From Promethearchaeota archaeon (GTDB lineage: Archaea; Asgardarchaeota; Lokiarchaeia; Sigyniarchaeales; SOKP01), in contig RDOE01000045.1 of the NCBI GenBank assembly GCA_011364975.1, positions 1-27,222 on the forward strand: 27,222 nucleotides of DNA, in the 5' to 3' direction. The translations under genes were made by a program, and so were the position numbers. The notes beneath the pieces are model-generated. The model did no database searches and was not told the origin of the DNA. It saw only the letters and a program-made list of their open reading frames with translations. Positions within the stretch are counted from its first letter, which is position 1, and the number at the start of each line of letters is the position of its first letter. Shown piece after piece: positions 7,366-19,918 of this stretch.

Positions 7366-7748
7366 TTCCTTCAAAACTCATTTTTTTAGATTACTATATA
7401 GACTTGGGTCTATTTAGGCTAATAAATACCTACCCTATTATTTAAATTTTCTTAAAAAGGTTAAAGAATAAACCAACAAGAAAAATGTAGAATTTACTAT
7501 AAATTTTGATAATTAATTATTATGATTGATCACAAAAGCTATTAAAAATGACTAATTACCTCAAAAAAGAAATAAATATAAATATTACAAACAACAAAAG
7601 TTTAATAACTATTAGTAATTGTGAAAAAGATTAATAAATCTTGTATTTACAGTTCAAATCTTAACTGAAATTGATCATAATTACTACGTTTAATGTTTCA
7701 TATTGTCAATATACAAAATTGTAGAAAAGGGGTGAATGTATCAAAAAA

Positions 7749-9692
7749 ATGGAAAATTCTGAAATGCAACGGATTGGATACTACGCTTGTCAATGAGGAA
7801 TTAATATCCGAGGAAAAGTTGATTGTGATAAACTTGTAGAATTTGCCAAAACTAATGATGGGGTTGTTGTAGCAAAAACTCACTCGTTTTTATGAACTGA
7901 AAGTGGTCAAAACGAGATTATTGGAGATATCCGAGAAAAGAATTTGACTCGTATTGTTGCATCGGCTTGAACTCCACGAACCCATGAGCCTATATATAGA
8001 GGGTCGATAGCAAAAACTGAACTTAACCCGTATTATTTTCAAATGGTTAACGTTCGGGAACATTGTTCATGGTGTACGGAAAATAACGAAGAAGCCCTCG
8101 AAAAAGCAAAAGTCTTAGTAAAAGCAGGATTAGATCGCGCAAGAACATTAGAAACGGTTCCAATTAAAACAGTACCAGTAGAAAAAGCATGCTTGGTTGT
8201 AGGTGGTGGAATCGCTGGAATGAATGCTGCTCTTGATTTAGCAAATCAAGGGATAAAGGTTTATCTTGTAGAGCGAAAATCAACCATTGGAGGTAGGATG
8301 GCTCAGTTAGATCGAACCTTTCCTACTGATGATTGTGCAATATGAATCTGTGGGCCTAAAATGTTAGAAGTCAATCGTCATGAGAACATAGAAATTTTAA
8401 GCTATGCAGAAGTTAAAAAGGTTGAAGGATATGTTGGTAATTATAATGTTACCATTGAAATTAAACCTCGATTTGTCGATGTTGAAAAATGTAATGGATG
8501 CGGTGCTTGTAGTGAGGTTTGTCCAATATATTCTGATAACTACTTTGATGAACATCTAGGTCCACGTAAAGCCATAGATATAGCATTCGGTCAAGCAGTT
8601 CCCTTTCTTTATGACGTGAATCGGGAAGTTTGTGTCGAATGTTTTTCTTGTGTTGAAGCTTGTGAATTAGATGCAATAGATTTTAGCCAATTACCCAAAG
8701 AATTAGAACGAAAAGTGGGTACAATAATAATTGCTACGGGCTGGGACATTTATGAACCTTTTGGGGAATATGGCTATGGAGAATATGAAAATGTGATAAC
8801 ACAATCCCAATTAGAGAGAATACTAGCACCTAATGGTCCCCTTGAAGGCCATGTTCATCGTATATCAGATACTAAAAAACCTCAAGAAATTGTATTTATT
8901 CAATGTGTAGGAAGTAGAGAGACTGAAAGGACTTATTGTAGCGGAGTCTGCTGTATGTTAGCCTTAAAAAACGGAAAGTTATTAAAAGAAGAGTTTCCCG
9001 ACGCTAACATTACTATCTGTTATATAGACATTAGAACTAATGAAAAAGGATTTGAAGAATATTATCAGCGTTCTAAAGATTCTGGAATCACCATGATTAG
9101 AGGTAAAGTTGGTGAAATATCCGAAGATAAAGAGACAAAAAATGTTAATATTCGAGTATATTCTTCCTTAACGGATGAAATTATACGAATTAGTGCTGAT
9201 TTAGTTATTCTTTCTTCGGCAGCATTACCTTCTAAAGGGACAGAACAAATTGCTAAAGTATTAAACTTAGATGCGGATACCTACGGTTTTTTAACAGAAT
9301 CACATTTTGGGTTAATGCCACAGGAGACAAAATCTAAGGGGATCTTTATCGCGGGATTCGCACAAGGCCCAAAAGATATTGCCTATTCGGTATCTCAGGC
9401 TAGAGCAGCAGCAAGCAAAGTAGCAGAACTAACTTCTCCTGGTGAAATTGATATTGAACTAATCACTGCAGAAGTAAATCCTGAATTCTGTATTATTTGC
9501 AAACGCTGTGAAAAAGAATGCCCGAAGATGGCAATTAAGGTCATGGATGATAAGGGAGCGGTGGTAGATGAAATAAATTGTGATGGTTGCGGAATATGTG
9601 CCACCTGTTGTCCAACAAAAGCGATAGACATTAGATATTATCGAGATCAGCAACTATTTAGCGAAATTGATGGAATTTTAGAGGGAGGTTAA
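7749..9692 (+). CDS. hdrA: Heterodisulfide reductase subunit A, selenoprotein with 4 Sec (647 aa)
   Basis: One frame from ATG 7749 (MENSEMQRIGYYACQUGINI...) to TAA 9690-9692. In-frame TGA at 7794 (CQUG), 7893 (FLUT), 7968 (SAUTPRTHE) and 8343 (DDCAIUICGP). This joins track ORFs 8043-8345 and 8361-9692. GGGIAG FAD motif, CVGSR/YCSGVCC and ferredoxin motifs present; GGGGTGA at 7729-7735. Confidence 0.93.
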
Positions 9693-9698
9693 ACAAAT

Positions 9699-10154
9699 AT
9701 GAGCTATAAATATGAGATCATTATGTTTGCCTGCTTAAAATGAGGATATAGCGCAGCAGATTTAGCAGGAGTTTCAAGGCTAAAGTATACTCCTTCAGTA
9801 AAAATCATAAAAGTGCGCTGTACTGGGAGAGTTGATGTACAACATATTCTATACGCTATAAAATCTGGAGCGGATGGAGTCATGATTGTGGGATGACGAC
9901 CTAATGAATGTCAATTTAAAAATGGTAATTTCACTGCCCAACGACATGTTGATTTGGCAAATAGAATTTTGGATTCAAGAGGATTCGGAAACCAAAGAAT
10001 TAATATGTACTGGTTAAGTGGTGCTGAAGCAGAAAAATTAGTTAAAAGTGTTGAAGATGCGTATGAAAAAATAAATCGATTGGGACCTAATCCTATTAAA
10101 CTAACGGATATTAAAACTGAAAAAAAGCAAGCAATAATAACACCTGTGGAATGA
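9699..10154 (+). CDS. mvhD: MvhD/VhuD [2Fe-2S] subunit, selenoprotein with 2 Sec (151 aa)
   Basis: ATG 9699 after SD GGAGG (9684-9688): MSYKYEIIMFACLKUGYSAADLAGVSR...VRCTGRVD...GADGVMIVGURPNECQF...WLSGAE. TGA at 9741 and 9894 align with Cys in the mvhD at 17292. Confidence 0.93.
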
Positions 10155-10186
10155 TTCTTACAAAAAAATAGTAGTTGTAAGATGAC
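10151..10186 (+). promoter_or_regulatory. Eukaryote-like SECIS element
   Basis: ATGAT-TCTTACAA-(AAAAATAGTAG)-TTGTAAGA-TGAC: AUGA/GA tandem G.A core, perfect 8-bp upper helix (10156-10163/10175-10182), A-run in the apical loop, directly after two UGA-containing genes. Confidence 0.85.
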
Positions 10187-10269
10187 TACCTATGCGAAGG
10201 AAAGGTGTTTAAAAAAGTAAATTAATTCCAAATGGAATTCATCATTAATATATAAGAATTGGAAAATAT

Positions 10270-11763
10270 ATGGTTCAAATTGCAAATAATAACCTATTTG
10301 AGGGAATAGCGCCAAAAGAGTTAATGGATGCAACCTATAGGGCATCCGAAAATTTTCAAGTGAGAGCTTTTTTTGAAGCTAAAGATGATATTATAAAAGC
10401 AGGAAAATATTCCGAAAATGAATTTTACGAAATTTTGGATGCATTAATTGATGCTGAAACCGAACGTAAACTCGTATCAGATTTATTAAAAGGTAAAAAA
10501 CCATTATTTTTATATGAAATTGTTGAACATCTTAAAAATTTTCCAGCAAAAAATGTCGTACGAGATATTATCTATCTAAAAGAGCAAGGTTACATTAAAG
10601 AACTCATAGAAGTTAAGACCAAAATGGTTATTAAGAAAATAAAAGGAGAAGAGAAAGAGGTTGAAGAAAAAGAATACTTCTATAGATATCAAGTGAAAGA
10701 ACTTCTTGATAATGTTATAGAACACTATTTTGAACCGGTTTCAATAGTATTTAATTCAGGGGTATGCTGTCATTGCGGATGGTGCTCTTCAATTTGTCCT
10801 GTAAATGCCATAAACGTATCAGCAGATACTCTTGATGTAGATGACGAAATATGTATGAAATGCGGTTTATGTTATACAGTGTGTCCCCGCTCATTCTCGA
10901 TTGATCAAGCATATAGTACAATTTCAAAATTGAATAAAACCTTAAATTTCTCGGAATCAATGGGTGCCTACATTAATACATATACTGCGACTACAACAAA
11001 AGAGGAGATTAAAAAAGTGCGTCAAGATGGAGGCATTGTAACTTCCATTTTGGAATATCTTCTAACCCACAATATTGTTGATGCTATCATCGCAGTCCAA
11101 CATTCCAAAGACCTTTGGAGACCCGAACCTGTAATAGTAGAAAGCGTAAAAGAATTATATAAAACAGGAGGTACGAAATATGCTAATTCTCCATCTCTCA
11201 CAATTATCGAGAAAGCAAAAAACTTTGAGAGAATTGCTGTTGTAGGAGTTCCTTGTATGATGAAAGCACTCTTCAAAGGGACATTATTTCCAAGTGGTCT
11301 ACCTTTTTTTAAGAATATCAAATATACTATTGGTTTATTTTGCATGGAATCTTTCTCTTATGATAATATTATTCAGTTAACGAAGGATAAATTTTCTCAA
11401 GAAATAACTAACCTAACTAAAATGAATATTGATAGCGGGAAATTTATTATAAACTTAAAAAATGGTGAGGAAATGGCAGTCGAGTTAAAAGAAGTCCAAT
11501 CTTATGCAAGGGATAATTGCCACTACTGCGAAGACCTCACATCAGATTATGCTGACATCTCAGTAGGTTCCATTGGTTCAAAAGCCGGATACTCATCTGT
11601 TATAACACGTTCAATAAATGGAGATGAATTATTCAGTGAGATTATTGAGAGTGGTTTAGTAGAGGTTCAAAATCTTAAGGAAGTTAAACCGGGGCAAGCT
11701 CTTGCTGAAAGAATTGCTGGATCTAAACGAACAAAATGTAAACCTATTGAATTAAGAAAATAA
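10270..11763 (+). CDS. Coenzyme F420 hydrogenase/dehydrogenase beta-subunit family (FrhB/FdhB-like) with N-terminal extension
   Basis: 2x[4Fe-4S] motifs (CCHCGWCSSICP, CMKCGLCYTVCP), 'QDGGIVT', 'GTKY', 'VGVPC', 'IGLFCME', 'CHYCED..SDYADISVGSIGS'. Confidence 0.9.
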   Translation: MVQIANNNLFEGIAPKELMDATYRASENFQVRAFFEAKDDIIKAGKYSENEFYEILDALIDAETERKLVSDLLKGKKPLFLYEIVEHLKNFPAKNVVRDIIYLKEQGYIKELIEVKTKMVIKKIKGEEKEVEEKEYFYRYQVKELLDNVIEHYFEPVSIVFNSGVCCHCGWCSSICPVNAINVSADTLDVDDEICMKCGLCYTVCPRSFSIDQAYSTISKLNKTLNFSESMGAYINTYTATTTKEEIKKVRQDGGIVTSILEYLLTHNIVDAIIAVQHSKDLWRPEPVIVESVKELYKTGGTKYANSPSLTIIEKAKNFERIAVVGVPCMMKALFKGTLFPSGLPFFKNIKYTIGLFCMESFSYDNIIQLTKDKFSQEITNLTKMNIDSGKFIINLKNGEEMAVELKEVQSYARDNCHYCEDLTSDYADISVGSIGSKAGYSSVITRSINGDELFSEIIESGLVEVQNLKEVKPGQALAERIAGSKRTKCKPIELRK

Positions 11764-11786
11764 AAAAATATTTTAAAGTGATTAAT

Positions 11787-12911
11787 ATGACCTCTAAAAC
11801 TTTTCAAGATCTTATTGAAGAAGTTCATAATAAAGGTATTTGTCAGGAGTGCGGTGGATGTGTTAGCTTCTGTAGTTCTGCAGAATATGATGTAATCGGA
11901 TTTAAGGATCCTTATAGTCCCCCGGAATATAAGCATAAAGATAAGTGTCTTGAATGCGGCATTTGTTATTATATTTGTCCACAGACTCATATTCTTGATA
12001 GTGAACTTAATAAAACTTATAAATTTTCTGACTTTGAATCTATGCCTATCGGCCATTACGAGCGTGTTTACTCTTGTCAAGCAAAGGATAAAGAATTTCT
12101 CGAGTATGGAACCGATGGAGGTGTTGTTAATTCGATTATTAATTTCTTAATCGAACAAAAATTAATAGATGGCGCGGTGGTGTCTCAAACTGATGCTCCT
12201 TTTTCAAGAGAAGCGACTTTTGCTGACAGTAAATATGATTTACTTAAAGCTTCAGGTGCAAAACTAGATATATCGCCACAATTGGATGAGATTCAAAAAT
12301 TTTGTACTTATACTCAATCAATTCCAAAATTAAATCATTATAAATTTAAAAAGTTAGCCGTAGTTGGCACCCCCTGCCAAATATACACTATTAGGTGTAT
12401 GCAGGATTTGGGGGTTACTCCCTCAGAAAATATAGAAATATGTTTAGGTTTGTTTTGTTATGAAAACTTCTTTTTTCAAAAATTCCAAGTTGAAAAGTTT
12501 GAAAAAGATTTTAATATAAAGTTTGCAGATATCGAAAAAATTAATATTAAAGAAGATTTAATCTTTAAACTTAAGAATGGGGGCTCAGGAGCTAAAGTTG
12601 TCCATGTTCCCTTTAATTATTTAAACGATTATATGAGACCCGCATGTAATGCATGTAGTGATTTTACAAATATATATGCGGATATATCATTTGGGGGATT
12701 AGGTTCTCAAGATAAATATACTACAGTTATACCCCGAACAAAAATGGGTAAACATATCCTTCAGAGAGTAATAGATGCTGGTATCATTAAATGTTCAGAT
12801 ATAGATTCTAATAAAATGAATAAGACAATTGAAAAATTAGCAAATTTTTCTCATTCAAAAGTGAAACGAAGAGAAACATTTATGAAGAAATTAGAGTTAG
12901 GAGGAGTATAA
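11787..12911 (+). CDS. Second FrhB/FdhB-family F420-interacting subunit
   Basis: CQECGGCVSFC, CLECGICYYICP, 'TDGGVV', 'VGTPCQ', 'LGLFCYE', 'CNACSDF...ADISFGGLGS'; start is ATG 11787 or GTG 11778. Confidence 0.9.
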   Translation: MTSKTFQDLIEEVHNKGICQECGGCVSFCSSAEYDVIGFKDPYSPPEYKHKDKCLECGICYYICPQTHILDSELNKTYKFSDFESMPIGHYERVYSCQAKDKEFLEYGTDGGVVNSIINFLIEQKLIDGAVVSQTDAPFSREATFADSKYDLLKASGAKLDISPQLDEIQKFCTYTQSIPKLNHYKFKKLAVVGTPCQIYTIRCMQDLGVTPSENIEICLGLFCYENFFFQKFQVEKFEKDFNIKFADIEKINIKEDLIFKLKNGGSGAKVVHVPFNYLNDYMRPACNACSDFTNIYADISFGGLGSQDKYTTVIPRTKMGKHILQRVIDAGIIKCSDIDSNKMNKTIEKLANFSHSKVKRRETFMKKLELGGV

Positions 12912-12912
12912 A

Positions 12913-14166
12913 ATAACTGAATCCAAAAAAGATATTGAAAGAAGGAAATTTTTTGGAGATACTTTAGATGCCTTAAAAAAGATTTATACCCCTGAGCTGA
13001 AAGAGCTCCTTAAAAGGTGTTATCAATGTGGGCGTTGTAGTGGTGTGTGTCAATTAAGTAAAGTTCAGAAATATACTCCTAGTAAAATTATTCAACTTAT
13101 TTTGGAAGGTTTTGAAGATAAAGTACTTCAAAGTGGAGCATTATGGGATTGCTTAACATGCAATCAATGCTTAAAAGACTGCCCTGAAAACATAAATTTC
13201 GCAGATATCGTAAGAATGGCACGATATCAAATGAGACATAATAAGAATCAAAATCCCGAGGAATACATTGCCCATAAAGGAATTTATACTACCCTCTCCG
13301 AAATGATGAGTAGGCCTTATATAATTCCTGATAGAAATATGGATTGGATTCCTAAAGGATGTAATGTTGCTGATGCGGGTAATATTTTGTATTATGTTGG
13401 GTGCTTACCCTTTTATAATTATGAATTTAATGATTTAGATACGATCGCTACAAGTACCTTAAAATTACTATGTAACGTAGAAAAAGACCCTATTGTAGTC
13501 CTTAAGGATGAAATTTGTTGTGGGCATGATATTTACTGGGGTCAAGGAAAATTAAAAACGTTTATTAAATTAGCGAAAAAGAATAAAGAAATGTTTGAAG
13601 CTAAAGGTATTTCTACTATTATAACCGCCTGTGCGGAATGTTATAGAACCTTAAAAATTGATTACCCGAATCTTTTTGAAGATTTTAAAGATAAATTTAC
13701 GGTAAAGCACTTAATCGAATATGTTTATGAAAATTGGAAAATGGGAAAAATTGAATTTAAAGAACCCAAAAAGAAAAAAGATATAATTACCTTCACTTAT
13801 CAAGATCCTTGTAGATTAAGTAGGTTTCTACCAAAAAATATTAATATTACTGCACAAATAAGAGAAATATTTAGAGAATTGGAAAAATTTGGCTACAAAT
13901 TTGAAGAAATGAAACATAATAAAGAAAATTCATTATGTTGTGGCATAAATTCATGGATGAATTGTAATGAAAAATCTAAAGCCCTGCGATACAAAAGAAT
14001 GCTCGAAGCTAAATCAGCTGGAGAGCTGTTATTAACTTCATGTCCTAAATGTAATATTCACCTTACATGTATTCAGAGCGATTTTGAAAATATCGCTTCA
14101 ATAAAAATTATAGATATTTCTGAATTCTTACTTGAACATATTAAAGTAATACAAAATGAAACTTAG
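12913..14166 (+). CDS. HdrD-like Fe-S oxidoreductase (HdrC-type ferredoxin + two CCG domains), non-canonical start
   Basis: CYQCGRCSGVC (from 13018) and CLTCNQCLKDCP; CCG domains 'YVGC..EICCG..TACAEC' and 'YQDPC..LCCG..TSCPKC'. The track start (GTG 13045) falls inside the first cluster motif; the frame is open back to ATA 12913, which follows a GGAGGAG SD. Confidence 0.85.
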   Translation: MTESKKDIERRKFFGDTLDALKKIYTPELKELLKRCYQCGRCSGVCQLSKVQKYTPSKIIQLILEGFEDKVLQSGALWDCLTCNQCLKDCPENINFADIVRMARYQMRHNKNQNPEEYIAHKGIYTTLSEMMSRPYIIPDRNMDWIPKGCNVADAGNILYYVGCLPFYNYEFNDLDTIATSTLKLLCNVEKDPIVVLKDEICCGHDIYWGQGKLKTFIKLAKKNKEMFEAKGISTIITACAECYRTLKIDYPNLFEDFKDKFTVKHLIEYVYENWKMGKIEFKEPKKKKDIITFTYQDPCRLSRFLPKNINITAQIREIFRELEKFGYKFEEMKHNKENSLCCGINSWMNCNEKSKALRYKRMLEAKSAGELLLTSCPKCNIHLTCIQSDFENIASIKIIDISEFLLEHIKVIQNET

Positions 14167-14183: not shown

Positions 14184-17100
14184 ATGGAAGGTTCTGTTCT
14201 AGTAATTGGTGGTGGAATAGCAGGAATCCAAACCTCTTTAGATCTTACTGAATTAGGATTTAAAGTATACTTAGTGGAAAAATCGCCATCAATTGGAGGC
14301 AGAATGGCTCAACTAGATAAAACCTTTCCTACAAATGATTGTTCTCTCTGCATTCTAGCACCCAAAATGGTAGAGGTGTTTAGAAATCCTAATATTGAAC
14401 TGATGACATACCATGAAGTCACAGAAGTATCCGGTAAAGCAGGTGATTTCAAAGTAAAGGTTCTTAAAAAACCGCGTTATATAGATGAATCAAAATGTAA
14501 AGGATGTGGAGATTGTGCTTCAAAATGTCCTAAAATTGAAGTACCTAACCTCTTTGATATGAATCTTGGGAAAAGAAAGTCAGCATACATTCCATTTCCT
14601 CAAGCGGTCCCTCCGGTTTACTTAATCGATCCGGAATTATGCTTAAAGATAAATAAGGGAGTATGTGGTGTCTGTGCGAAGGTATGTCAAGCAGAAGCGA
14701 TAGAATTTGAGCAAAAACCTCAGGAGAAACAAACGAATGTTGGTGCAATCGTTGTAGCTACGGGCTTTGATATGCCCGCTGAAAACTTGTCTTCCCGTTG
14801 GGGATATAATTACCCTAATGTAGTAAGTGCTCTTGAATACGAGCGAATATTATGTGCCTCTGGGCCTTTTGGGGGGCATGTTTTAAGACCAAGTGATCAT
14901 ACTGAACCTGAAAGAATCGCATTTGTACAATGTGCTGGATCAAGAGATTTACACGAAGGAATTCCTTATTGCTCTAGTGTTTGTTGCATGTATACTGCTA
15001 AAGAAGCGATAATAACTAAAGAACATTCTGACAAATCTCAATGTTATGTTTTTCGTCACGATATTAGAGCCTATGGTAAAAACTTTTATGAGTTCACCCA
15101 ACGGGCTCAAAAAGAATATGGAGTAAAATATTTCCAAACAAAAATTAGCAAGATAGAAGAGGAACCTGAGACTAAGGATTTAATTATTCATTATGAAAAT
15201 TTAAAGAATGGAGAATTTAACAATTTCCGCGCAAATTTAGTTGTATTAGCAACACCCTTAGTTCCTTCTAATGGCACTCAGGAACTTGCCAAAATTTTAA
15301 AAATTGATTTAGATGAATATAACTTTTTTAAGGAGAAAGATTATTTTCATAAATCAAAGTCTTCAAAAGAGGGTATTTATTTAAGTGGATTTTGTCAAGG
15401 TCCAATGGACATTCCTGAAACGGTTGCAGATGCGAGTGGAGTAGCTGGACAAGTAGCTGCTTTTTTAAATTCGGTAAAATTTGAAAAGACGCAAGAAAAG
15501 GAGTTATTGATCCCTGAATTAGAGATTAAAGCGAGTGATGAGCCTAGAATTGGAGTTTTAATATGCCATTGTGGAATTAATATTGGAAAGTATGTTCATG
15601 TGCCTTTGCTAGCAGAATATGTACGCCAACTGCCTAATGTTGTTCATTGTGAGGATAACTTATATTCCTGTAGTTCTGACTCGCAAGCGCGGATTAAAGA
15701 ACTTATAATCAATCACAAATTAAATCGATTTATTGTAGCTTCTTGTACTCCGAGAACTCATGAAGCTCTCTTTCAAGAAACATGTCAAGAAGCAGGCTTA
15801 AATAAATATTTATTTGAAATGGTAAATATTCGTGACCAATGTTCTTGGGTTCACATGGATGATGCTGAAGCTGCAACCCAAAAAGCAAAGGATCTAATAC
15901 GAATGGCAGTTGCAAAATCAAGACTTTTAAAACCTCTTAAAGAAGAGTCATTAAAAATCACACCTACTGCTCTTATTATCGGTGGTGGGATTGCCGGAAT
16001 GAGTGCAGCATTGAATATTGGCGATCAAGGATTTAAAACCTATATTGTAGAAAAAGAACAAATCCTCGGTGGAAATTTGAATCATCTAAATGTTCTCTAT
16101 CCGATTGAGCAAGATGCTTCTGAATTCATTAAGCAAATAATAAAGTCAGTTGAACAACACAAACAAATCCAAGTGTTCTTAAATGCTAAGATTAAAGATA
16201 TAAAAGGATATGTAGGAAATTATATTGTCACAATTGTTGATTCTAAAAATAAACCTCAAGATTTAAGTATAGGAACGATAATTGTAGCAACAGGCGGCAA
16301 AGAATACAAACCAAAAGGATTATTTCGATATGAAGCTGAAAATGAAAATGTTATTACCCAATTAGAACTGGAACAGATTTTAAAGGAGAAAGGATCGTTA
16401 TGGCTGGAAACGATTAATCGAATAACAATAATTTTATGTGTGAATGCTAGACAAGTTGAGGGGATAACTTATTGTTCAAATACCTGTTGTGGTAATTCTA
16501 TTAAGAATGTAGGGCTTCTAAAAAAGTTAAAACCAGACTTGGAAATTCTTGTTCTTTATAGAGACCTTCAGATGGCTAAAAAGAAATACGAAGAATATTA
16601 TCGTAAGCGCCGGAAAGATGCTATATTTTTGAGATATGACTTAGACAATCTTCCTGTTGTTAAAAAAGTAAATAAAAAGCCAGAAAAATATAATATAAAA
16701 TTTTTTGATATCAACCTTCAAGACTTCTTAGAATTTGACACTGATGCGATTATATTATCAACACCTATTGTTCCAGAAGACAACTTAGATGATATAGCAA
16801 AAATGTTAAAGGTCCCCTTAGATAGAAATGGCTTCTTTTTAGAAGCTCATGTAAAATTAAGACCATTGGATTTTGCAACAGAGGGAATATTTTTATGCGG
16901 TTGTGCACAATGGCCAAAAAATATACAAGATTCCATTTCACAAGCGCATGGGGCGGCTGCGAGAGCAAGCAGGTTTTTAAGTGCAGAAGAAATTAAAACT
17001 TCAGGGATTGTTGCGGAAGTTAATCCTGTGAATTGTATTGGTTGCGGAAAATGTGAATCGGTATGTCCCTATAATGCGATAGATATTTTAGAATCAATTA

Positions 17101-17270
17101 AAGAGTTTGAAGATATAACATTAATCGCCAAAAAATCGTTCATTAATTCAGCCCTCTGCAAGGGTTGTGGTACCTGTGCCGCAACCTGTCCAAATGGAGC
17201 AATATCTATAAAACAATACGATTTTGATCAAATATCTGCTATGATCGAGTCATATTTATTAGAAACTTAA
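14184..17270 (+). CDS. hdrA: HdrA-family protein, double FAD-module form, Cys-only (1028 aa)
   Basis: Two GGGIAG motifs, DKTFPTNDCSLC, CAGSR/YCSSVCC, a central 'RIGVLICHCG..YSC..ASCTPRTHE..RDQCSWVH' domain and a C-terminal 2x[4Fe-4S] domain. Confidence 0.92.
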   Translation: MEGSVLVIGGGIAGIQTSLDLTELGFKVYLVEKSPSIGGRMAQLDKTFPTNDCSLCILAPKMVEVFRNPNIELMTYHEVTEVSGKAGDFKVKVLKKPRYIDESKCKGCGDCASKCPKIEVPNLFDMNLGKRKSAYIPFPQAVPPVYLIDPELCLKINKGVCGVCAKVCQAEAIEFEQKPQEKQTNVGAIVVATGFDMPAENLSSRWGYNYPNVVSALEYERILCASGPFGGHVLRPSDHTEPERIAFVQCAGSRDLHEGIPYCSSVCCMYTAKEAIITKEHSDKSQCYVFRHDIRAYGKNFYEFTQRAQKEYGVKYFQTKISKIEEEPETKDLIIHYENLKNGEFNNFRANLVVLATPLVPSNGTQELAKILKIDLDEYNFFKEKDYFHKSKSSKEGIYLSGFCQGPMDIPETVADASGVAGQVAAFLNSVKFEKTQEKELLIPELEIKASDEPRIGVLICHCGINIGKYVHVPLLAEYVRQLPNVVHCEDNLYSCSSDSQARIKELIINHKLNRFIVASCTPRTHEALFQETCQEAGLNKYLFEMVNIRDQCSWVHMDDAEAATQKAKDLIRMAVAKSRLLKPLKEESLKITPTALIIGGGIAGMSAALNIGDQGFKTYIVEKEQILGGNLNHLNVLYPIEQDASEFIKQIIKSVEQHKQIQVFLNAKIKDIKGYVGNYIVTIVDSKNKPQDLSIGTIIVATGGKEYKPKGLFRYEAENENVITQLELEQILKEKGSLWLETINRITIILCVNARQVEGITYCSNTCCGNSIKNVGLLKKLKPDLEILVLYRDLQMAKKKYEEYYRKRRKDAIFLRYDLDNLPVVKKVNKKPEKYNIKFFDINLQDFLEFDTDAIILSTPIVPEDNLDDIAKMLKVPLDRNGFFLEAHVKLRPLDFATEGIFLCGCAQWPKNIQDSISQAHGAAARASRFLSAEEIKTSGIVAEVNPVNCIGCGKCESVCPYNAIDILESIKEFEDITLIAKKSFINSALCKGCGTCAATCPNGAISIKQYDFDQISAMIESYLLET

Positions 17271-17291
17271 CAAATTAACAAAGTAAGATAG

Positions 17292-17729
17292 ATGCCAAAA
17301 GCAAAAGTAAAAGAAAAGTACCCGGACTTTAATCCAGAGATTTTAGTATTTTGCTGTAATTGGTGCTCTTATGCAGGAGCAGATCTTGCGGGAGTATCTC
17401 GATTTCAATACCCCCCTAATATGCGAATTGTTAGAGTAATGTGTTCGGGGAGAGTAGATCCATCTTTTGTGATAAAAGCTCTTAAAGAGGGTGCTGATGG
17501 AGTTTTAATTACAGGATGTCATATAGGAGATTGCCATTATATCTCTGGTAATGAGTTTGCGAGAGAAAGGTTTGAACGGCTACATAATATTATTATAAAA
17601 CAACTTGGAATCGATGAAAAACGAGTGCGATTAGAATGGGTAAGCGCATCAGAGGGAAAACGATTCGCAGACTTAATAACAGAATTTACCAACCAAATTA
17701 GCGAATTAGGCCCTTTAAAAGTTCTTTAA
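17292..17729 (+). CDS. mvhD: MvhD/FlpD [2Fe-2S] subunit, Cys form
   Basis: Canonical FCCNWCSYAGADLAG, VMCSGRVD, GCHIGDCHY and WVSASEG. Confidence 0.95.
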   Translation: MPKAKVKEKYPDFNPEILVFCCNWCSYAGADLAGVSRFQYPPNMRIVRVMCSGRVDPSFVIKALKEGADGVLITGCHIGDCHYISGNEFARERFERLHNIIIKQLGIDEKRVRLEWVSASEGKRFADLITEFTNQISELGPLKVL

Positions 17730-18881: not shown

Positions 18882-19886
18882 ATGAACCAAGAAGAAAACA
18901 GGAATTTTGTAAAAAAAATAGAATCTCTTGTAAAGCCTCAAGATGTAACTGCCATCAGCTTTTTAAGCAGTTTCAGTAAATCTCTTCCTAAAAAGACACA
19001 ACATAAATTTACACAGAGCGGGAAGAAAAGAATTCCTTACATGGGATTCATAGTAGAGCCCTATGGTTTATTTGTGTCATTTAAGATAACGAACGCTTCA
19101 GCAGCCCAAGAGATGCTACCCGATGGATACGAATTAGCAGAGACCTCTTTCTTTAAGAACGAAGCAAAGTTTCCCATGGTAATTGCAAGCGTATTTACCG
19201 CTCGAACATCAGGATTTATTGGTATGCGAGCCGAATTTTATATTATTGCTCACAATAAAGAAACCGGGCTGTTATCTTGGATCATTTGTGATTATGAAAC
19301 AAATACTAACAGCTATGATCCAAAGAATGGATTTTGTGGATATACTTGCGATCCAGCCGTGTATACAACCACATATTCTGGGGAGTTACTGGTTGATATT
19401 AAGAATCGCAGTAACAATAAAGAATTCATTCTATCTGTTGACTTAGAAAAAGGTGATTCAAGGGAATTAGACGAATCCCTCTGGATTGAAGGAAATTTTT
19501 GTGTCGACTATGGCGGCGAGTTAAAAAGTGATTTTTCAGAGCCTTTCAGCCTAATTTTTGACCCAAATATGCTAAAAGAAGCTATAAGTATACCTTTAGA
19601 ATATATTTCAATCAAGGCTAACTCCTATCTGAATAATATTATTGATCCTGTTAAGCCAGTAAACGCAATTACCATTCCTTATAATCAGCACTTCATTATC
19701 AGGCAAGACCTGCAAAAACATGCGGTTAAAAATCAAAAGGACTTAGATCTTCAAATAAAGTCTTTCCTTAGCAGAACTGGATTTAAAACCATGTCAGGTG
19801 ATGATATAAAAAAACCTATTTATGGAATGGTCTTAATTTCTTACATAGTACTTATCAGTATAATTGTATTATTACTAATTTTCTAA
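18882..19886 (+). CDS. Hypothetical protein, tandem paralog of 17839-18846, C-terminal TM anchor
   Basis: Shares PYMGF..EPY.LF, F..R.S.F.G.R.E.Y, KETGL.SWI, LW..GN, IFDP and P..QH with the upstream gene. Confidence 0.65.
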   Translation: MNQEENRNFVKKIESLVKPQDVTAISFLSSFSKSLPKKTQHKFTQSGKKRIPYMGFIVEPYGLFVSFKITNASAAQEMLPDGYELAETSFFKNEAKFPMVIASVFTARTSGFIGMRAEFYIIAHNKETGLLSWIICDYETNTNSYDPKNGFCGYTCDPAVYTTTYSGELLVDIKNRSNNKEFILSVDLEKGDSRELDESLWIEGNFCVDYGGELKSDFSEPFSLIFDPNMLKEAISIPLEYISIKANSYLNNIIDPVKPVNAITIPYNQHFIIRQDLQKHAVKNQKDLDLQIKSFLSRTGFKTMSGDDIKKPIYGMVLISYIVLISIIVLLLIF

Positions 19887-19918
19887 TAAGACTCTATCTA
19901 TAAGTTTGGGTAAAGCTC

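Follow-up and report, generated by a model that had tools for sequence, protein, structure and literature searches.

A single lokiSECIS element behind an hdrA–vhuD gene pair of a lokiarchaeal genome probably serves the UGA codons of both genes

The selenocysteine insertion sequence (SECIS) elements of Asgard archaea have been described in two surveys. In the text of Mariotti et al. 2016 (Mol Biol Evol 33:2441, PMC4989117), the lokiSECIS comprises an AUGA quartet, a 9-bp stem, an 11-nt loop that starts with As and ends with G, and a GA dinucleotide; the first five loop nucleotides are A-rich, and the final G is usually preceded by an A. According to the same text, a single element located after VhuD is common to HdrA, whose gene always ends in UAA or UAG, and the AUGA provides the stop codon of VhuU.1. 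Termination at this core UGA was explained by the ribosome unwinding the element, and a minimal-distance requirement was argued for. It was also stated there that tools designed for eukaryotic SECIS elements miss the lokiSECIS and that SBP2 was not found in Loki. Huang et al. 2024 (ISME J, PMC11227280) subsequently reported 1439 Asgard selenoprotein genes, with hdrA and frhD having one common eSECIS-like structure. The model given in their main text includes a lower stem and an internal loop, an upper stem of 7–15 bp, an apical loop of 8–20 nt and AUGA_AA variants, and stop codons are said to overlap the AUGA often. Both texts describe a shared lokiSECIS serving 'up to six UGA codons' over approximately 2 kb. 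Here, we describe an element of this kind in a 27,222-nt stretch of a Promethearchaeota archaeon (contig RDOE01000045.1, assembly GCA_011364975.1; hereafter the window), where it stands at the end of an hdrA–vhuD gene pair with six internal UGA codons. The arrangement was already known, having been published in 2016 and 2024 for the same lineage, and the window is a rediscovery of it.

The genes and the parts of the element, all on the + strand, are as follows.

7749–9692, +: hdrA, heterodisulfide reductase subunit A, 647 aa, TAA stop (translation with TGA as selenocysteine, Sec)
9683–9698, +: hdrA–vhuD junction, with GGGAGG (Shine–Dalgarno-like) in the last hdrA codons, TAA at 9690–9692 and a 6-nt spacer at 9693–9698
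9699–10154, +: vhuD/mvhD (FlpD family), 151 aa, UGA stop at 10152–10154 (translation; Pfam PF02662)
10139–10145, +: 5' strand of SECIS helix I, AACACCU, in the last vhuD codons (Thr-Pro); from the minimum free energy (MFE) fold and compensation in orthologues
10146–10155, +: 5' internal loop GUGGA and core AUGAU, from the sequence; ATGA is invariant in 33/33 aligned elements
10156–10182, +: helix II and the apical loop AAAAAUAGUAG, from pairing and covariation
10183–10186, +: 3' core UGAC, containing the GA of the quartet; C10186 is able to pair with G10149
10189–10200, +: hairpin III, CCU-AUGCGA-AGG, which separates the core from helix I on the 3' strand; from the MFE fold and conservation
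10203–10209, +: 3' strand of SECIS helix I, AGGUGUU; from the MFE fold and compensation in orthologues

Between 10151 and 10186, the sequence reads AUGAU / UCUUACAA / AAAAAUAGUAG / UUGUAAGA / UGAC. Helix II consists of eight Watson–Crick pairs (10156–10163 with 10175–10182) flanked by a U.U at 10155/10183, and it is capped by an 11-nt, A-rich apical loop (10164–10174) that begins with AAAAA and ends with AG. This AUGAU/UGAC core, with its perfect 8-bp helix and A-rich loop, is as it had been described in an earlier reading of the sequence alone. What that sequence-only reading missed is that the UGA of the AUGA (10152–10154), codon 152 and the third TGA in frame with vhuD, is the vhuD stop, and that the full conserved structure extends over 10139–10209, a lower helix I and an extra 3' hairpin III being added to the core. 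In the MFE fold of 10139–10210, the structure is closed by helix I (10139–10145 with 10203–10209), and hairpin III is placed after the 3' core, ahead of the second strand of helix I. By analogy with K-turns and other SECIS elements, sheared pairs are proposed for G10153 with A10185 and for A10154 with G10184. A canonical K-turn with a 3-nt bulge, in which G10146–G10149 would pair with C10186–C10189, is compatible with the window sequence; as judged by eye, other elements keep only the first G–C pair of that lower K-turn stem, often with a following A–U pair.

Compared with the published texts, the window element is alike to the lokiSECIS, or type I eSECIS-like structure of Asgard archaea, in its AUGA, its stem (eight Watson–Crick pairs plus the U.U), its loop, its GA and its position at the end of vhuD. 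The locus as a whole is alike in having a single element for hdrA and vhuD, six UGAs, an hdrA stop other than UGA and an AUGA used as a stop codon. Moreover, the element overlaps the end of a selenoprotein gene in an Asgard archaeon that possesses Sec machinery genes. No essential difference emerges from these texts; the AUGA stop is reported for VhuU.1 in the 2016 text, whereas here, and in 27/30 orthologues, it is that of vhuD.

Translation of the two genes yields four in-frame TGAs in hdrA (7794–7796, 7893–7895, 7968–7970 and 8343–8345; codons 16, 49, 74 and 199) and two in vhuD (9741–9743 and 9894–9896; codons 15 and 66) that are taken as Sec codons, in accordance with the six UGAs in two genes counted earlier. 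HdrA, which carries Fer4 and FAD domains according to Pfam, matches the solved chains 9sfi_A (E 6.7e-205, residues 8–645) and 5odc_A end to end. In the alignment, U16, U49 and U74 stand opposite Cys, and U199 stands opposite the X (Sec) of 9sfi_A; the columns, conserved as Cys or Sec, belong to the N-terminal domain and to the canonical site near residue 200. If these residues ligate an Fe–S cluster, that cluster would be selenium-ligated. VhuD matches PF02662 with 151.4 bits (cut-off 22.3; E 1.5e-44), and its U15 and U66 correspond to Cys residues in a Cys-type MvhD encoded elsewhere in the window, at 17292–17729. The codons also recur among relatives, which are metagenome-assembled genomes of Promethearchaeota (Lokiarchaeota). 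The first 217 HdrA residues contain four TGAs in 21 and three in 16 of the 37 closest relatives, and vhuD carries two TGAs in all of the 30 orthologous vhuD loci of the same class that were compared. In the window, all other open reading frames (ORFs) of 110 aa or longer are complete without TGA read-through, and thus TGA is an ordinary stop codon in this genome and its recoding is gene-specific.

Conservation of the element was assessed in the same 30 loci. A hairpin with AUGA at the end of vhuD is present in each of them, followed by GA in 28/30 and by AA in 2/30. The core UGA is the in-frame vhuD stop in 27, and the other three stop at a TAG just before the core. In an alignment of 33 elements, 99.2% of helix II cells are paired, all eight pairs are changed on both sides and 0/500 shuffles perform as well; the set consists of 28 orthologue rows and an element on contig C154, none of which was chosen on pairing, together with four own-genome paralogues that were found by a perfect-stem pattern and are therefore circular for this test. 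Three early As of the loop and its final G are invariant across the alignment. Helix I comprises 5–9 bp in 30/30 orthologues, a lenient count because the register was free in the search. Synonymous changes in the vhuD codons of helix I are matched in the 3' untranslated region (UTR), giving ACACCU/AGGUGU, ACUCCC/GGGAGU, ACCCCC/GGGGGU and GCUCCC/GGGAGC, while the hairpin III pattern CC..GC..GG is near-invariant among the orthologues. The covariation proposed as a check of the hairpin is found, with compensatory changes in all helices.

A further 40 elements, from other genomes and other genes, were picked by the score of the core model alone. Of these, 39 have a hairpin III of 4 bp or more (shuffles: mean 24.4, maximum 32), 33 have GC in its loop (mean 4.4, maximum 12) and 29 have a helix I of 5 bp or more (partner-swap controls: mean 20.7, maximum 27). 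The functional unit thus probably comprises three helices and about 70 nt (10139–10209), instead of the 36 nt of the usual drawings. A more specific proposal, that the lokiarchaeal SECIS is a three-helix junction resembling a k-junction, with helix I drawn from the last sense codons and hairpin III on the non-bulged strand, is tentative and on balance doubtful. The k-junction, as treated in the texts of Li et al. 2023 (RNA 29:1411, PMC10573300) and Wang et al. 2014 (PMC4005666), is alike in its tandem G.A core and in having a third helix opposite the bulge. On the other hand, the analogy is topological only; the third helix of the window element seems to lie 1–4 bp below the core and not directly opposite the loop, and the 5' loop exceeds 3 nt unless G10146–G10149 pair with C10186–C10189. 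Hairpin III is mentioned neither in the text of Mariotti et al. 2016 nor in the main text of Huang et al. 2024; the figures and supplements of both papers may show it, and may list this genome. Our literature search found no description of a three-way-junction SECIS or of an Asgard SECIS-binding protein. Hairpin III and the three-helix architecture are possibly the sole new detail of the element.

The window was searched for a second element on both strands, with filters off, using two covariance models, R1 (three-helix) and R2 (generic core). R1 gave 84 bits at 10129–10217, the next window match being 16.9 bits, and R2 gave 61.8 bits at 10147–10191, followed by 13 bits; this check of the locus with covariance models therefore returned one element. 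The 16.9-bit match (19839–19918, − strand) has no AUGA and is attributed to chance. Neither R1 nor R2 detected a second lokiSECIS in 7386–10146 on either strand, R2 reporting none there at E ≤ 10, which upholds the earlier impression, gained by eye, that no other convincing SECIS is present. The Rfam SECIS families gave 0 matches at the gathering score in the window, and none of them was among the four matches at E ≤ 10 in 7400–10400. No stable hairpin was found 3' of any of the six UGAs (70-nt windows, z −1.09 to +1.90).

The exact geometry of the core (ATGA-N-8 bp-11 nt-8 bp-NGA) occurs at eight sites in the 3.74-Mb genome (200 contigs, 30.6% GC) and at one or two in each of five genomes simulated with a first-order Markov model, which corresponds to approximately 0.01 expected per window by chance. 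One same-geometry match, at C31:7875, lies inside an ordinary ORF, is unmatched by R2 at E ≤ 10 and is regarded as a chance occurrence. Genome-wide, R2 finds six elements of at least 40 bits, all 3' of ORFs with an in-frame UGA, and the next best match has 18.5 bits. Three of the six trail hdrA–vhuD tandems, one each (C145, C149 and C69), and the other three trail small ORFs.

An internal control is provided by a Cys-type pair on the + strand of the same window (14184–17729), which contains no in-frame TGA and is followed by no match to a SECIS model. It consists of a 1028-aa HdrA-like protein (14184–17270; two FAD/NAD domains and Fer4) and, 21 nt further on, the 145-aa MvhD mentioned above (PF02662, 187.8 bits). 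These distributions bear on the possibility that the hairpin is a terminator or stability element unrelated to Sec, the UGAs being stops or sequencing errors in decaying genes. Such an explanation would suit the position at the 3' end of the operon and the U-run (GGGGGUUUUU) that follows the hairpin in many orthologues. It is hardly credible, since all six genome matches of at least 40 bits trail ORFs with an in-frame UGA while the Cys-type mvhD lacks an element, an invariant AUGA/GA and an A-rich loop do not characterize terminators, the UGAs occupy Cys or Sec columns in frames that stay open over 647 and 151 codons, and the TGA codons recur in independent assemblies (vhuD in 30/30 loci, HdrA in 37 relatives).

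Genes for Sec synthesis and insertion were found in the genome. SepSecS scores 460 bits, above its cut-off, and adjoins a tRNA-Sec candidate (C106:34342–34428) with a TCA anticodon as read by eye. These two and a SelB-like factor (C106:38707–39594) are clustered within 7 kb of one contig (C106:32958–39594). In addition, there is a SelD with one in-frame TGA (Sec-SelD) and a PSTK/KTI12-family match of 128.7 bits.

The hdrA–vhuD junction provides indirect evidence that hdrA depends on the downstream element. The 6-nt gap between them, correctly given in the sequence-only reading, is typical of the orthologues: GGAGG or GGTGG followed by a spacer of 4–7 nt is present in 28/30 loci, of the remaining two one having 22 nt and the other an overlap. 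The hdrA stop codon is TAA in 23 loci, TAG in seven and TGA in none; for the last seven of the 30 loci, junctions and stops were read by eye. In a metatranscriptome (RNA-library) assembly, a 267-nt contig of depth 2.5 (X19) spans the junction (9474–9740) with 0 mismatches, covering 9474–9692 of hdrA, and a second contig (X20) covers 8702–8936 of hdrA; neither covers 10036–10605. A candidate for an internal vhuD promoter, the TATA-like AATTTTAGAG in the last hdrA codons, was rejected, since on visual inspection the orthologues do not share it.

The best explanation of these observations, which we consider likely, is that the element is a lokiSECIS, that a bicistronic hdrA–vhuD mRNA carries it at its 3' end and that it acts on the UGAs of both genes. 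It would then reach from the core (10151) to the first hdrA UGA (7794) over 2357 nt, in line with the 2.36 kb proposed previously. Sharing of the element across the cistron boundary is inferred from the sequence, from which it probably serves the upstream hdrA as well as vhuD. The absence of UGA among the 30 hdrA stops is what would be expected if the hdrA UGAs are exposed to a downstream SECIS. Alternatively, the element may serve vhuD only, with the hdrA UGAs recoded by an unrecognised structure within the coding sequence (CDS), a trans-acting factor or SECIS-independent Sec insertion. This is improbable, although SECIS action across cistrons has never been demonstrated and candidate folds do exist in hdrA: a GUGA-type fold at 9580, an AUGA-type fold at 7892, of which the U49 codon is a part, and a GAA_A-type fold at 8202–8231. 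The candidates are at chance level overall, those at 9580 and 8202–8231 are not conserved, no hairpin follows the UGAs, R1 and R2 have no match in hdrA, and a UGA stop is absent from hdrA in 30/30 loci.

The individual candidates (7732, 7892, 9580 and 8202) are unmatched by the covariance models and were rejected. At 9580, GUGA is kept in 12/28 orthologues and replaced by GCGA in 16/28. The fold at 8202–8231 (+ strand; a 7-bp lower and a 3-bp upper stem within the stretch of hdrA that encodes the GxGxxG FAD motif) is the single loose GAA_A fold in 7700–10300, with a mean of 0.07 and a maximum of one site in 100 shuffles; it is lost in the paralogues on C149 and C69 and is taken as a coding-driven coincidence.

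The terminal UGA (10152–10154) could, on a further alternative, also be read as Sec, extending VhuD C-terminally to 10220, given that the frame stays open for 21 codons more, up to a TAA at 10218–10220. We regard this as very unlikely. The extension is not conserved, the next TAA or TAG being reached after 3–4 codons in most orthologues and a TAG preceding the core in 3/30. Furthermore, this UGA is itself part of the structure that would need to bring about its recoding, and a minimal-distance requirement is argued for in the text of Mariotti et al. 2016.

Several points weigh against the shared lokiSECIS as the explanation. The function of the lokiSECIS in Sec insertion is without experimental proof anywhere; in the text of Peiter et al. 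2025 (PMC11881835), the Loki elements are bioinformatic predictions, and one lokiarchaeal SECIS was non-functional in a Methanococcus maripaludis reporter. The X19 contig is single and of low depth, DNA carry-over is possible, and a contig is no proof of one transcript. Loose scans of the Huang 2024 type for type I and GAA_A folds yielded 32 candidate sites in hdrA versus 25.7 ± 4.4 in shuffles, and stricter ones yielded three versus a shuffle mean of 1.14 and a maximum of four. The tRNA-Sec candidate scores 40.3 bits with the Rfam model, below the cut-off of 47, and ARAGORN made no tRNA-Sec call for it; the SelB-like factor, at 234.5 bits, is just under the bacterial cut-off. The eukaryotic SECIS model of Rfam fails to match the element. 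When 68 elements were aligned to the three-helix model, helices I, II and III were 84.4, 98.2 and 95.0% paired versus 40–52% in slid controls, in an alignment that was fitted to the model, so that its pair counts lean to structure, and among genomes that are close kin. Finally, in the folding check suggested earlier, helix I and hairpin III appear in the MFE fold, and the stability of that fold is unexceptional (z −0.62 for 101 nt and −1.62 for 72 nt). The case rests on conservation and covariation and not on energy.

With respect to the other SECIS classes, the architecture had been assigned to the eukaryotic and Lokiarchaeota type, of which the second part is borne out feature by feature and the first amounts to resemblance. 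The window element is alike to the eukaryotic SECIS (RF00031, SECIS_1) in being located 3' of the CDS and in its proposed action at a distance, in its K-turn-like AUGA/GA core, in the unpaired As of the apical loop and in having a lower helix and an internal loop. It is unlike it in giving no Rfam model match, in its shorter helix II and in belonging to what is probably a polycistronic mRNA. The methanococcal and Methanopyrus SECIS is likewise archaeal, located in the 3' UTR and serving two VhuD UGAs, and in the 2016 text the methanococcal VhuD element also has AUGA and GAC/AAC; the window element, in contrast, has neither the GAA_A asymmetric bulge nor the GC-only upper stem. The bacterial SECIS, an in-CDS hairpin directly 3' of each UGA, has no counterpart at the six UGAs. 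The earlier exclusion of the bacterial and methanococcal GAA/A types thus stands.

The region 3' of the element contains, on the + strand, two FrhB/FdhB-like genes (10270–11763 and 11778–12911) and a gene with a CCG domain (HdrB-like; 13045–14166), a set suggestive of an Hdr/Mvh-type module that has F420-type beta subunits. In the two orthologous loci whose downstream sequence was inspected (L031 and L033), vhuD is likewise followed by the conserved start of the first FrhB/FdhB-like gene. Between vhuD and this gene, an inverted repeat (AATTCC-AAAT-GGAATT, 10224–10239) is followed by an AT-rich, TATA-like stretch before the ATG at 10270, and the region 10224–10270 may be a terminator/promoter boundary.

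The three small ORFs trailed by lokiSECIS elements elsewhere in the genome have no Pfam match. The first (C154:20241–20488, L040) encodes about 67 aa with a predicted membrane helix and the sequence ...GDGTUGCAS..., and it has a lokiSECIS of 58.8 bits behind it; in other genomes, too, short ORFs of a similar kind carry GGGU or GGSU and precede a lokiSECIS (L057, L060, L068, L070 and L090). The ORF is absent from the seven families that Huang et al. 2024 name in their main text and may represent an unlisted selenoprotein family. The second (C173:2552–2744, L037), a 38-codon ORF with two zinc-ribbon-like CxxC pairs, ends in ...VVYK-UGA-stop, with a lokiSECIS (48.1 bits) 36 nt downstream and a relative in L053; its UGA is either a C-terminal Sec codon or a stop. 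The third (C169:63840–64377, L036), of 158 aa, has adjacent in-frame UGAs (…DVGCUUEK…) followed by a lokiSECIS of 47.2 bits. Its CUU recurs in a relative, L086, and the motif is unlike the CxxC redox box described for PrxL.

In the mechanism that we propose, hdrA and vhuD would be carried on one mRNA, and the folded element, acting directly or via a binder, would recruit Sec-tRNA(Sec) together with a SelB-type factor to ribosomes at the two vhuD UGAs. On the same transcript it would act likewise for the four hdrA UGAs far upstream. The seventh in-frame UGA would terminate vhuD, the arriving ribosome having already melted helix I and the core. Since a ribosome at the core UGA would unwind these parts, each termination of vhuD would transiently destroy the signal. 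If this is so, Sec insertion in both genes would be coupled to the translation of vhuD.

If hairpin III is required for a SECIS binder or for SelB, it would constitute an undescribed part of the signal. It may in that case bear on why a lokiarchaeal SECIS was non-functional in Methanococcus. What is added by the present analysis is an independent, model-based confirmation that the locus has no second element, and evidence for a probable three-helix unit of about 70 nt. The window itself provides a clean further instance of the arrangement, in which HdrA has four Sec positions, VhuD has two and the core holds a stop codon, and offers a well-delimited construct. If the explanation is true, the recoding of six UGAs by one 3' signal, across two cistrons and a distance above 2 kb, would be without known parallel elsewhere. 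The element bears on the origin of the eukaryotic SECIS system from an Asgard ancestor, a significance that belongs to the 2016 and 2024 papers.

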